Part shown: positions 46,488 through 57,913 of the stretch, one piece after another | Layout: each line of letters opens with the position of its first letter | Numbering within the stretch: the first letter of the stretch is position 1 | Source of the DNA: Eledone cirrhosa | Lineage: Eukaryota | Direction of reading: 5' to 3' | Length of the DNA: 64,000 nt | NCBI GenBank assembly: GCA_964016885.1 | Contig: OZ024740.1 | Coordinates: forward strand, 142,290,001 to 142,354,000 | Translations under genes and position numbers: made by a program | The notes under the pieces: generated by a model | Database searches by the model: none | The model's input: only the letters and a program-made list of their open reading frames with translations | Told to the model about the DNA's origin: nothing

Positions 46488-48020
46488 TGTTATACTTGGG
46501 GAGGGTCATATTTGTGTAATATTGCCAGAATTAATAACAGAACACACTCACTGTTTGGTTGGTTTTCGCTTTTCGCTTCTGTGTCTTTTATATCGGTAAT
46601 CTAATTTATTCGGTCCTCAATGTTGCCATTGACTGACCAACGGTCAAAAATAATACAGATACAATATAGACACAAACACATATATATAGTTTATCAAAGT
46701 TCTTTCGTTGCACATCTGCAACATCGTCAGTGGTGCTATTGTTTCCTCCCGTTACCTTGTATGTCTACGCCATCTTTATTTAGTCTGTTTATATATTTAT
46801 TTATTTATTTGTTTGTTTGTTTATTTTATTTTGTCTTCTTTGCGCATGCGTTTGCGTGTGTGTATAGTGTTTTGTTTGATGTGTGTTCGTGATTGGGTGA
46901 CTGTGTATTGGTTAATGTCTTTACTAGTGTGTGTTTATATGTGTTTGTTGTTATTGTGCTTGTGTATGTATATATATATTTATTTATCTATTTATTTATT
47001 TATTTATACTTCTCTTAGGTCAGTGTTGTTTGTTTGGGTGTTGTTGTTATTCCATTCATTATTTCTGTTTAGTCTTGGCCTTCTAAGTTCTATTTTACTG
47101 GCCTCTCTGATTTGCCTATCTGCTGGGTCATTTCTATGTTTAGATATTATTCTAATTTCTATGTTGTCTATGTTACCGTCGTGTTGTTGTCTAGCATGTT
47201 CGTATAGTATTGACCCGTTTTTTCGTCCTTTTAGTTCCCCCCAGTGTTGGTCTATCCTTTCACCTATGCTACGAGCTGTCTCGCCTATGTATGTTGTTGT
47301 CATGTTTCTGCAAGTACCCTCTGTACATCTTATGCTATAGACTACGTTTCTAGTTTTACTTTTTATCCGGGGGTTTACCTTACATATGATACATTTCCTA
47401 TTAGTACAGTGGGTTTTTTTAAAAGGGTAGGTTTTGCTGATCAGGGATTTTATGGTGGTTCCTGGCTTTTCTACCACCTTAATCTTTAAGTGGGTCTCTC
47501 TCAGGGCCTTTCTACACTGGTTAGCTAATTTCCCTCCAGAAGTAGCGTCCACAAACATGACACTCTGGTATCTCTGGTTGTCGTACCATGAGGTGGCTTT
47601 CCCTATCTTATGTCTAGCCCTATCTAAACTATTCCATGATTTGCTCCTGTATAATGGGCACATTCCTTTCATGTCCAGTTCTATGAGGGTCTTATACTTC
47701 TCCATGGCTCCTTCGTATACTCTGACTCTGTCTCTTTGGTTGTAGCCAGAGAACTGCATGCAGTTGATGAAGTGTTGGATGTGTCTGTTGGGTCGCACAC
47801 GCGGGACACATTCTTCATCACTCGTACCAAATCTGCGATCAGAATATTAAACTTAGCACTACTGGACATTGCTGAGTTTTTGAGTATCAGGTATTTGGAG
47901 GCCATATTACACAAATATGACCCTCAGGTATTTGGAGACAATATTACACAAATATGACCCTCCCCAAGTATAACAATATTTGTTTCGACACACGATTTCA
48001 TATAAAAAACCTCGCAAATC
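46488..48020 (-). mobile_element. 5'-truncated Penelope-like retroelement with inverted tail
   Basis: RT thumb, linker and GIY-YIG coding region; 3'UTR with CTGACGA-t-gttgca..tgcaac-GAAA (46695-46735); tail at 46488 repeated inverted at 47939-48020. Confidence 0.88.
47004..47905 (-). pseudogene. PLE RT C-terminus + GIY-YIG endonuclease (partial, frameshifted)
   Basis: MAS..SAM..ILIADLVR (47681-47914 frame), then SGY..PLYR..WY..KVVEKPG..C..C..C..VVYSIRC..YIGET..LNRNNEW (47004-47798). Confidence 0.85.
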
Positions 48021-48370
48021 TCTCTCTCTCTCTCTATATATATATAAAATAGCAAGAGTACATTTAGTGCTTAAGCATGGTGATTTGCAGCTTCATGATC
48101 AGTATTACTGTTGTTTGACTAATTTACAGGCGAACAACAGCAACTGCTTGTAACATTTTGGGAATTCAAATCACCATGTATAACCAATGAATACAATAAT
48201 CATTATGTTGTGTGAATTCTTACGATCTATTATATATGTGTGTTTGTTTGTGTGTTTGTGCGTGTGTGCACTTTCATTCATGTAAATATATATATATATG
48301 TATCTTAGCACACCCTCTTTGTTGTATATATATATGTATATATATATATATATACATACATATATATGTG

Positions 48371-48483
48371 ATGGACCAGATGGACCCACACCAGAGTACT
48401 CAATACTTAGGGTAGTAGAGTGGGTAATAGGAAAAAGTTTGACCCGACGGCAGAGCTCTGCCGTCGGGGTCAAACCTTTTCCT
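48371..48483. mobile_element. Half-hammerhead family member folded at stem III
   Basis: gacggcagagctctgccgtc at the centre. Confidence 0.75.
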
Positions 48484-48599
48484 ATATATATAGTAATAAT
48501 AATAAATTTGATGGCTAAAATCCAAAGAGGGCTCGATAAGGATAAATATATATCAAATATATAAGAACCCTAAATATATATATATATATATATATATAT

Positions 48600-48967
48600 A
48601 TACATATAGAAATGGCTTCTACAGGAATAGAACTGTTTCATTCGAAGCAAATCATCACTTACTGTGGTTACCCTAATTGAACCCGACACACACACACACA
48701 CACACACACACACACACACACATATATATATATATATATATATATATATATATATATATATATATATATATATATATATATATATATATATATATATATA
48801 TATATATATATATATATATATATATATATATATATATATATATATGTGTGTGTGTGTGTGTGTGTGTGTGTGTGTGTGTGTCGGGTTCAATTAGGGTAAC
48901 CACAGTAAGTGATGATTTGCTTCGAATGAAACAGTTCTATTCCTGTAGAAGCCATTTCTATATGTAT
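48600..48967. repeat. Perfect 368-bp palindrome centred on (CA)n(TA)n(TG)n with a truncated HHR in each arm
   Basis: Identical ORF translations on both strands; arm reads TGATGA-tttgcttcgaat-GAAA-cag..ctg-TA-gaagc, same family as 27048. Confidence 0.85.
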
Positions 48968-49399
48968 GAATACACACACACACACACACACATATATATA
49001 TATATATATGTGTGTGTGTGGAAGATTGTATGTATATATATTTAGATATATGTATATATTTGGGGGTGTCAGCACGTGCATACATACATACAAACATATA
49101 TGTATACCTATATATATAAATATGTGTGTGTGTATATATATATGTGTCCATATATATATATATATATATATATATATATATATATATATATATATATGTG
49201 TGTGTATATATATTTATATGTGTGTGTATAAATATCTATACATATAAGCATAAACACATGCACACACACGCGCACACACACGCATATACATATATATATA
49301 TATATATGTGTATATACACATATATATATATACATATATATATATGCATGCGTGACGCGTGTGTATGTGTGTGTGTGTATAAAATGATGAGTGCACTCA

Positions 49400-49790
49400 C
49401 ACCGGAGTGGCACTTCGTCCTCCACTCGAGTTCGCTCTGCCTCAGCTGTCCTTCCACCATAGCACATGTTGGTTCCCTCAACACGCCACACTGAATGACA
49501 TAATTCGAAGGAGACTCGACGTGGTCGGCTTCCCGTCACAATGGGAGCCAGGTAGTCTTGACCGTGGTGATGGTAAACGCCCTGACGGGATAACTCTCTT
49601 CCCATTCGAGGGTGGTAAATCCTCATTCTGTGACACCACTTGCTGCGATTTATTCTTCGCTTTCAACCGTGACGCTTCAGCCCCAAGTTCAGGCACCATC
49701 GCCCGCACTGCCGAGATGAGAGAGATAAGGAAATACAGGGGCTTGACGGGCCACTTTCTTTTCATGCCACCGCCTAGATTTCAGGTGTCC
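49400..49790 (+). mobile_element. CRE-like RLE LINE fragment
   Basis: HATLNDIIRR..PSQWEPGSLDRGDGKRPDGITLFPF..G..DTTC. Confidence 0.7.
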
Positions 49791-51169
49791 ACCTCATCCT
49801 CCGAACTACTGTTTTCTCCATAAAATCGGAAAGACTGCTGACTGCCCGGGGAAGGGGCCCGTGGGGTGGCGGGAAGTTGCAGCAGGTGTAGCTAGCCATT
49901 CTTTGCCTTCACCATATATGTATATAATATTTTCTCTGCTGCTATTTCTTTGGGAAAATGTGTACGGAATGGGCACCGCCTTACCAACGCGAGATTCCAT
50001 AATGATTTAAGAGCACCCTGGATTATGGATGGATGGAAACATTAGTATCCTGTATGTGTGTACCTGATAGCTGCTGCTATTTCTTGCGTTTGATTATAAT
50101 TATGATAATTAGGATGCATAGAAACCTGATAACCGAACAACTTAACCACTAAGCCATCCACCTATTCAACCGATTAGGTACTGGAAGATGATTTAAACGA
50201 TTAACCCTGTCTCAAAATCCCTAGTATACTCCTACGACTCGACTATAATAGAACTGTATAGGTATATTCAGAGAGTAACTAAGGAGTGAACTTTTGAATC
50301 ACAATGCTCCAATTTAGATAGCACAGTGTGCCACCCTCAACAAATGCCGCCTTCTCAAACCTCCAGACGTCCTAAGCCTTGTGAATACATATAGAGAGAA
50401 TAGACGTACATCGTGCACTAACTCATCGGTTGAACTACACAGGCGGATTGAAGGCCCAGCCTTGTCACATACACTGTCTCAAGAATTGTACGTGACATCA
50501 TATGCATTTATACGCGCACACACTTACATATATATGTGTATATATATATATATATATATATATATATATATATATATATCTGTCTCTCTCTCTCTCTATA
50601 CATACATACATACATACATACATACATACATACATAAATACATACATATTTGTGTATGTGTGTATGTGTGTGTGTGTAAAAAGTAAACAGAAATAACAAA
50701 CCAAACGACACAGTACAATGAAGAAATATATTAATTTAATATTGTGTGCATATATGCATGCGCGCACGCACGCGCATGTGTGTGTGTGTGTGTGTGTGTG
50801 TGACAGTTGCTCAGCGTTGCTCTGGTAGAAAGAGAATAATTTTAGAAATTCTGTTATTTCAATTCGTTTGTGTTTATGTTTACAGCAGTTCTATCAGAAC
50901 CGGTGTTGTTTACGTTCCCCCCCCCCCCCCTTTAGTAAGTCGATAGACAGAGATCAAATCTTTCAAGTAAGTATTTGCGTCGATATGATCGACTAAATAG
51001 AAAACTTTGCTGATGGTCCTCATCTTGCTTGGCCCGAGTTCAATGTTTGAAGTAGAGGAGGGTTTTTTTTTTTTTTTTTTTTTTTTACTAGTTGCACAGA
51101 TATGCTTAGTTAAATGAATGTGAGCTTGTGAGTATATGTGTGCGTGCGTATATACATATATATATATAT

Positions 51170-56942: not shown

Positions 56943-57007
56943 TATTTTATCTGATGAAAGCGCACCAAGTTTGGCTTGGTCGCCCTTGAAATATATATAA
57001 TAAAATA
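56943..57007 (+). ncRNA. Type I hammerhead ribozyme, canonical
   Basis: tattttat-CTGATGA-aagcgcaccaag..cttggtcgccctt-GAAA-tatata-TA^ataaaata; 8-bp stem I. Confidence 0.85.
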
Positions 57008-57182
57008 ATTATGGTTTTATAAATATAGTTTCCATTTATTAATATATTGAATATTTACTCCAGTAAATTGTTGAGTGCTCTATATTAGTTATAAACATTT
57101 AAGTTTGTTGGAATCCCAACAAATTAAATATAACTTCTACATATATATATAATATATATATATATATATATAATGGCGATGA

Positions 57183-57340
57183 ATTAGTTTTGCGAGGTTT
57201 TTGATATGAAATCGTGTGTCGAAACAAATATTGTTATACTTGGAGAGGGTCATATTTGTGTAAAAATATTGACAATAACAGAACTGTTATTAATTCTGGC
57301 AATATTATTACACAAATATGACCCTCCCCAAGTATAACAA
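57183..57340. mobile_element. Tail-only palindrome of the 46.5-48.0 kb PLE
   Basis: Inverted ttgttatacttgg(a/g)gagggtcatatttgtg arms. Confidence 0.8.
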
Positions 57341-57360
57341 TATATATATATATATATATA

Positions 57361-57580
57361 TATTTATTAAAATAACAGATTAAAGTTTAAGCAAAGAATC
57401 GCTGCTTTCACCCTTCAATCCCGTTAAGGTTGAAAGCAGCGATTCTTTGCTTAAACTTTAATCTGTTATTTTAATAAATATTTGCTCTACGGTTCTTATA
57501 TATTTGATATATATTTATCCTTATCGAGCCCTCTTTGGATTTTAGTCTTCAAATTTATTATTATTACTATTATTATTACT
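57361..57580. mobile_element. TA-flanked palindrome (55-bp arms) with extended tail
   Basis: 57361-57480 hairpin; family fragments at 22001-22038, 28594-28662, 48492-48570. Confidence 0.75.
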
Positions 57581-57761
57581 ATATATATATATATATATAT
57601 ATATATACATACATACATATATACATATGTATACATAGATACAAATATACATACACATATATACGTCTGAATGAATGTGTATATGTATGTATATATATAT
57701 ATATATATGTATGCATATTTGTATATATGTTTATATATATATGCATATATATATATATATA

Positions 57762-57913
57762 TATTAGTTTTGCGAGGTTTTTGATATGAAATCGTGTGTC
57801 GAAACAAATATTGTTATACTTGGGGAGGGTCATATTTGTGTAATATTGCTGTTATTGTTCTGTTGTTAATTCTGGCAATATTACACAAATATGACCCTCC
57901 CCAAGTATAACAA
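57762..57913. mobile_element. Second tail-only palindrome of the PLE
   Basis: As 57183 but with a different central junction. Confidence 0.8.

Follow-up and report, generated by a model that had tools for sequence, protein, structure and literature searches.

A 64,000-nt stretch of the Eledone cirrhosa genome (contig OZ024740.1, positions 142,290,001 to 142,354,000; hereafter the window), rich in microsatellites, holds four insertions of one abundant family among the Penelope-like elements (PLEs), all of them into (TA)n. Our analysis of these insertions and of their relatives elsewhere in the 3.0-Gb genome revealed that mirror-image copies of the family, in which two arms meet head to head, combine one short with one long end. 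The probable origin of such insertions is a cut by the endonuclease in (TA)n, after which the two cut ends both prime reverse transcription on the same sense RNA, each at a different internal site. A more specific scheme, to which we give somewhat better than an even chance, holds twin priming to be obligate, asymmetric and confined to a single sense RNA: two fixed windows would lie 45-60 nt apart, the same segment would be copied from both, one cDNA would be displaced, and ADAR edits would barcode the molecule.

Head-to-head insertions join a short and a long end

The arm shared by the window insertions terminates minus-strand coding copies at 46484-46488 and 39038-39041, reappears inverted at 47939-48021 with a 42-nt extension, and builds palindromes at 57170-57343 and 57763-57916, whose junctions differ from each other. 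A first-pass annotation of the window had reported all of these features, and they are indeed present in the sequence, although it started the left palindrome at 57183, whereas the latter begins at about 57170. The palindromes had been described there as tail-only; each does contain two arms of the tail, but also carries an extension into the open reading frame (ORF) on one arm and none on the other. What was called the tail comprises the end of the pseudo-long terminal repeat (pLTR) together with ORF nucleotides +1 to +26 (the ATG being at 46509). The extension in the window arms is the continuation of the ORF start; it is this ORF-start extension that corresponds to the PLE tail of the literature. 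The interval 46484-48021 is a single insertion rather than a copy plus a separate inverted tail. A chance origin of the arm recurrence is excluded, because the core 25-mer has 12,233 exact matches in the genome versus none for its reversed control.

The sample consisted of the first 100 of these 12,233 matches in genome order, with their surroundings fetched as loci L111-L182; pairs were assigned by hand, and duplicates were counted once. All 37 main-family head-to-head insertions (34 from the sample and 3 in the window) turned out to be of the short+long type (p=1.5e-11 against 0.5). Their sizes range from 119 to 4,069 bp, with 8 insertions of at most 300 bp, 13 of 301-600 bp and 16 longer. 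A sister family, sharing the core and the short end and showing about 70% ORF identity, contributed 28 insertions, 27 of them short+long (including one complex tandem) and one short+short. Single-arm insertions are short-ended in 34 cases versus 6 long-ended, a count in which the core anchor slightly favours short arms, and three of the short singles retain 10-33 nt of an inverted long arm. One apparent short+short insertion (L168) was removed from the pairs, its second copy belonging to the sister family; a tail-to-tail arrangement (L143) entered the tally as two separate singles, L182 was recognised as a duplicate of L164, the tandemly duplicated copies in L165 and in L178 contributed one count each, and L112, L161 and L170, which run off the fetched stretch, remained unclassed. 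Whole mini-palindromes were also seen tandemly duplicated 2-5 times through their TA flanks (L165:596-2128, L178:471-1563 and L052).

The inner junctions of the 37 main-family insertions comprise overlaps of 0-6 nt (14 cases), inserts of 1-7 nt (9 cases), and longer inserts or later insertions (14 cases). The window junction at 47887-47938 switches between arms twice, as expected of iterative microhomology repair, presumably of a polymerase-theta type. A pattern search for very tight hairpin centres produced no matches.

Arm ends fall into two windows at the ORF start

The first-pass annotation had suggested two priming sites, the short one at a TA microhomology. Our tally of 140 arm ends (sister-family and duplicated ends included) bears this out, with the short end at +26 of the ORF, on an ATAT overlap, and a cluster of long ends from +68 to +84. 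In fact, 76 of the 140 ends lie precisely at +26 and 8 at +22 to +25, and the long ones are mostly found at +69, +71, +75 or +84, at TA/AT. The microhomology at the short site is real but does not choose the site by itself: the 140 ends include none from +38 to +55, a stretch in which +47..51 has the sequence ATAT or ATATA. Thirty of the 37 non-redundant main-family long ends coincide with TA/AT overlaps no shorter than 2 nt (null 0.24, p=3e-13); such an overlap is indistinguishable from a true end 1-2 bases earlier plus target sequence, and random ends would not accumulate there. Since the ends pile up in windows, leave +47..51 unused and are enriched in TA/AT overlaps, the position appears to be set first and then refined by microhomology. 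The RNA of the ORF start folds no better than its shuffles (z 0.12 and 0.63), and no stem-loop is claimed at the priming sites.

Both arms appear to derive from a sense RNA

The short-ended arm extends further 5' in 21 pairs, the long-ended one in 13, and the two are equal in 3. In the first group, simple copying of one arm from the other would account for neither, because only the long arm has +27..+84 while the short one reaches further 5'. The partner arm was the nearest relative in 11 of 24 testable pairs (0.76 expected) and was among the top three in 17.

Further evidence comes from A-to-G changes in the sister family. Searches with edited natural copies yielded 14 edited pairs, 9 of them with edits in the overlap of the arms; L192, L193, L207, L214 and L215, with at most 2 edits there, were uninformative. 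All nine insertions carry ADAR-type A-to-G changes in the element sense on both arms, the shared and discordant edits numbering 93/0, 110/5, 51/3, 25/2, 10/0, 7/1, 11/8, 12/10 and 5/3. The pair sharing 93 of 93 edits has no other difference between its arms. In the sister insertion L137, both arms carry A-to-G changes, which make up 38 of the 40 changes on one of them, and the pattern is confined to these two arms; for L217, no third copy above 81% was found among 40 scored candidates. Non-partner copies had a median edit Jaccard index of 0.21 (maximum 0.60) and 86-96 discordant sites.

The edited fraction varies with the 5' neighbour (T 0.46, A 0.41, C 0.21, G 0.18) and is highest with a 3' G (0.48), as tallied over three copies with matched references (a first tally with mixed references was nearly flat); we take this bias to agree with the preference of ADAR. 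The edits cease 47-126 nt upstream of the ATG in three copies, leaving 50-70 downstream A sites unedited, which fits either a protein cover of the priming region or selection on it. An antisense template or a whole hairpin transcript is disfavoured, because either would give T-to-C changes on one or both arms, and so is polymerase error, as errors would not repeat at the same sites.

Two other sister arms (L190:5-153 and L209:1664-1918) show a T-to-C excess in the element sense (15 and 10 changes, respectively), that is, antisense-strand edits; these may have taken a different route, such as the copying of a hairpin transcript.

Proposed mechanism and its alternatives

In the probable mechanism, the element endonuclease would make a double-strand cut in (TA)n, and the element protein, bound to the ORF-start region, would set the two priming windows, within which a 2-4 nt TA/AT pairing with the target would fix the exact start base. 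Each cDNA would then stop at a variable point, and microhomology-mediated repair would link the two cDNA 3' ends in head-to-head orientation. Stops at a very early point would result in palindromes of 120-250 bp, and a long arm of zero length in a single short-ended copy. The least certain, speculative step is the order of events, in which the short site would be used first and the polymerase at the long site would follow and displace the first cDNA; this order is favoured by the 34 short versus 6 long singles and by the three long-arm remnants. Copies exceeding one 4,133-nt element unit (L031-L034, L044 and L050) need a tandem or circular template, as proposed in PMC4209133.

Several points weigh against this scheme. 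Two long ends are atypical (+37 and +59), and one sister insertion (L222) is short+short. The partner arm falls outside the top three in 7 of the 24 testable pairs, and three edited pairs share only 55-62% of their edits (L195 being partly misaligned). No hyper-edited main-family copy was present in 203 ORF alignments, and two patterns for edited main-family copies had no matches, which by itself does not show their absence; because no such copy was found, the same-molecule step is borrowed from the sister family (~70% identical in the ORF). The shared edits could also stem from a lost edited source copy or from arm-to-arm gene conversion. As a support for the displacement order, the ending of 6 of 18 long arms at +8..+23 (p=0.025) is weak and post hoc. 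Finally, the Poseidon element PAc of Anolis showed in vitro no start-site difference between strands and no target homology (PMC11167929).

Priming from both target ends might also employ a separate RNA for each end (an asymmetric dimer, two transcripts of one gene) or separate repeats of a tandem or circular transcript, with shared edits that descend from an already edited source copy or passed between the arms by gene conversion. A dimer is predicted for PAc (PMC11167929), the existence of cDNAs above the 4,133-nt unit means that templates may exceed it, and some arm pairs are discordant. However, separately edited molecules or repeats should differ from each other as non-partners do (86-96 discordant sites), whereas one pair agrees in 93 of 93 edits without any other difference, and each of the two edit patterns examined was confined to a single insertion. 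We therefore regard this version as unlikely.

Improbable, in our judgment, is a fold-back origin, whether the cDNA snaps back on itself or an antisense transcript serves for self-priming, as suggested in PMC3846280. Although it could account for the few junctions that are near-perfect hairpin centres (L133, L172), and a snap-back would copy edits into both arms, snap-back requires nested arms, and the short-ended arm, which lacks +27..+84, extends beyond its partner on the 5' side in 21 of the 37 pairs. Antisense self-priming, in turn, would be expected to leave T-to-C changes in the element sense, whereas the nine edited pairs show A-to-G.

The first-pass annotation had interpreted the small palindromes as extreme 5'-truncated PLE insertions, an interpretation that a separate palindrome clade with fixed ends would have contradicted. 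Our results uphold it: the insertions form a continuum of 119-4,069 bp with the same outer ends, those of the coding copies, and with unique inner junctions. Each window palindrome junction has a single exact match in the genome, and five other mini-palindromes carry other junctions. In a tree of 60 long arms (20 of them non-coding), we counted 12 label changes versus 13.6 after shuffling, and a single palindrome clade was rejected (approximately unbiased test, p-AU 8.3e-7), the tree resting on 97 columns and being weakly resolved. A miniature inverted-repeat transposable element (MITE) would have fixed symmetric terminal inverted repeats (TIRs) and a uniform interior; here the ends are asymmetric, the junctions unique, and no clade is formed. 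Taken together, these observations support the view of the small palindromes as cut-short insertions of the PLE family without a clade of their own. Even though the palindromes are short and TA-flanked with inverted arms, and for 10 of the 20 non-coding long arms the nearest neighbour is solely another arm of this kind, it is very hard to reconcile an independent MITE-like family with fixed ends, sharing only terminal sequence with the PLE, with unique junctions, asymmetric ends identical to those of coding copies, a continuous size range and the rejected clade.

Anatomy of the window insertions

The minus-strand part of insertion 1 (46484 to 47905), described in order of rising coordinates, starts with the short 3' end (46484..46509; ORF +1..+26, the last 4 nt, ATAT, overlapping the flanking (TA)n). 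It continues with the 3' untranslated region/pLTR (46510..47003), including a hammerhead-like core at 46698..46735 (CUGANGA, 6-bp stem II, GAAA), and with a 5'-truncated ORF (47004..47905). The latter encodes the reverse transcriptase (RT) thumb, a C-x4-C-x2-C-x7-C linker and a GIY-YIG endonuclease with CCHH, with an open stretch of 280 aa at 47004-47846. The inner junction (47887..47938) is a back-and-forth templated insert that can be read directly in the sequence: after the left-arm end come 20-22 nt from the right arm, a return to the left arm for 14 nt, and then the right arm. The inverted long arm on the plus strand (47939..48021) spans -14 to about +65/+68 and passes into (CT)n(TA)n. 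Insertion 2 (39038..39966, minus strand) is a short-ended copy (-902..+26) with the GIY-YIG coding part, no inverted arm and (TA)n on both sides. The palindrome of insertion 3 (57170..57343) consists of a long arm on the minus strand (from the +84 end, with one substitution, to about -33) and a short arm on the plus strand (-30..+26). That of insertion 4 (57763..57916) has a long minus-strand arm (+71..-15), a 6-nt junction insert and a short plus-strand arm (-34..+26).

The element is a canonical PLE

The 280-aa fragment gave 39,025 first-look candidates in the 3.0-Gb genome, of which 138 were scored (90-95% identity apart from the window itself). In four fetched copies the frame stays open over 1,217-1,218 codons, the eighth of which is a Met, so that intact 1,210-aa ORFs exist outside the window. 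The nearest named protein is from Octopus vulgaris (69% identity). The RT motifs DK, RP and YVDD are conserved in the ORF. An alignment-based structure model (predicted local distance difference test, pLDDT, 87, versus 35 only for a single-sequence prediction) has telomerases as its best PDB folds (E 2e-9), which suggests a telomerase-like RT. By motif (VVY..C..C..YIG, R, H, H, E, N), the intact ORF carries at its C-terminus a GIY-YIG endonuclease with CCHH, in agreement with the published alignment. Pfam and PDB sequence searches with the ORF alone gave no match, a profile search with the ORF retrieved weak RT matches only, and the Pfam GIY-YIG family matched 1 of 24 relatives, weakly. The family displays pLTRs from partial tandems, an inverted 5'-truncated copy and a one-sided tail, the layout of canonical, endonuclease-containing (EN+) PLEs. 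Overall, the element is an EN+ PLE, a known kind with a known layout.

The linker conforms to the reduced pattern CX2-5CxxC, and its spacing, as well as the C-terminal CCHH endonuclease, is shared with Nematis (Nematis_Cr in the supplement alignment of PMC8557442), a likeness at the level of motif comparison. Our element differs from Nematis by a 1,210-aa ORF with an Asn-rich insert and by its mollusc-type host. Three other clades were rejected: in Neptune the last Cys follows CxxC at a distance of about 25-30 aa, as opposed to 7 residues here; Naiad/Chlamys have an N-terminal rather than C-terminal endonuclease; and Hydra elements lack CCHH and are <3 kb, whereas CCHH is present here in a unit of 4,133 nt.

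The copy L031:1534-5187 (minus strand) encodes ~68 extra residues between RT motifs 3 and 4, at the position of the IFD (insertion in fingers domain), as do 22 of 24 alignment rows. Canonical C-terminal-endonuclease PLEs have been described as devoid of the IFD (PMC8557442), and the present family possibly represents an undescribed lineage. The L031 ORF also has an Asn-rich in-frame insert upstream of the RT (about residues 255-420); rotifer PLEs carry N-rich inserts as well, although placed elsewhere (PMC3846280).

The hammerhead-like core and stem II in the pLTR are accompanied by two compensatory pairs between the main and the sister family; stem I is weak in the former and well formed in the latter. 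An Rfam scan of the L031 copy gave no hammerhead match. Judged from its sequence, this core would be compatible with a tandem or circular template.

A motif scan also picked up, at L153:5612 (plus strand), a GIY-YIG PLE of a separate family whose linker is different.

Relation to known systems

The inverted 5'-truncated PLE layout and two start sites have already been published (PMC8557442, PMC11167929). Canonical C-terminal-endonuclease PLEs (Craig et al. 2021, PMC8557442; Arkhipova et al. 2013, PMC3846280) share the layout, with a tail of 30-40 nt, compared to 43-58 nt in this family, for which near-strict pairing is now quantified and insertions become as small as about 120 bp. The edits of the sister family indicate a sense RNA here, in contrast to the self-priming on antisense RNA proposed in PMC3846280. 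Poseidon PAc (Frangieh et al. 2024, PMC11167929) cuts and extends both target strands in vitro from two internal sites, and it resembles our family in that two RT start sites within the ORF start define the tail and the target is AT-rich. On the other hand, the PAc sites are alike on both strands and non-homologous to the target, whereas here each end has a different site and 2-4 nt TA/AT overlaps. The distance between RT motifs 3 and 4 is also different, about 60 aa in Poseidon and 128 aa (hand count) in this family.

Twin priming of L1 reportedly (Ostertag and Kazazian, 2001) lets both target ends prime on one RNA and results in an inverted insertion joined by microhomology. The L1 arms copy non-overlapping parts of the RNA, one starting at the poly(A) primer site and the other at an internal site of variable position, unlike the same segment copied here from two fixed windows.

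As judged from search listings, with subscription papers such as Arkhipova 2006 outside their scope, no paper was found with a strict short+long pairing or an editing barcode, or claiming PLE twin priming, strand displacement or ADAR edits; the cited part of PMC13282606 has nothing on the inverted PLE layout. The interest here is in the pairing rule and the editing barcode, both bearing on mechanism, the kind of element and its layout being known. The origin of PLE inverted repeats and one-sided tails has been named as an open question (PMC8557442), and the in vitro study left the later insertion steps unvalidated (PMC11167929). The present family offers thousands of natural insertion products that follow a near-strict short+long rule, and its edited sister copies inform on the RNA strand used and on the number of molecules. 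If true, obligate asymmetric twin priming would provide one mechanism for the tail, the head-to-head layout and a large class of the TA-flanked mini-palindromes of this genome. Our results further suggest that, in genomes of this kind, PLE stubs rather than MITEs make up many of the small palindromes with TA flanks, and that editing by ADAR can enter heritable DNA.

Other repeats

A further family of TA-flanked palindromes, with a one-sided extension of ~75 nt, occurs in the window at 57955-58140, 41892-42309, 51149-51370, 52001-52116, 48360-48485, 20243-20354, 22626-22715 and 62834-63202; its anatomy is that of the PLE palindromes, and no linked PLE ORF was found within the fetched loci. Two more palindrome families, with short or extended ends in TA, are located at 57360-57560 and 45490-46075. 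Fold-back repeats, some with a central microsatellite, are seen at 45060-45390, 46225-46415, 48600-48967, 6092-6611, 28859-29102 and 3694-4074. The window also contains several fragments of a non-LTR retrotransposon (11886-16479, 29416-30105 and 54763-56317; Pfam RVT_1 at 12924-13943) with, by eye, a C-terminal cysteine motif and the look of a restriction-like endonuclease. A short element at 40080-40475, with TIRs of about 30 nt, TA flanks and a transposase-like fragment, appears mariner-like on visual inspection.

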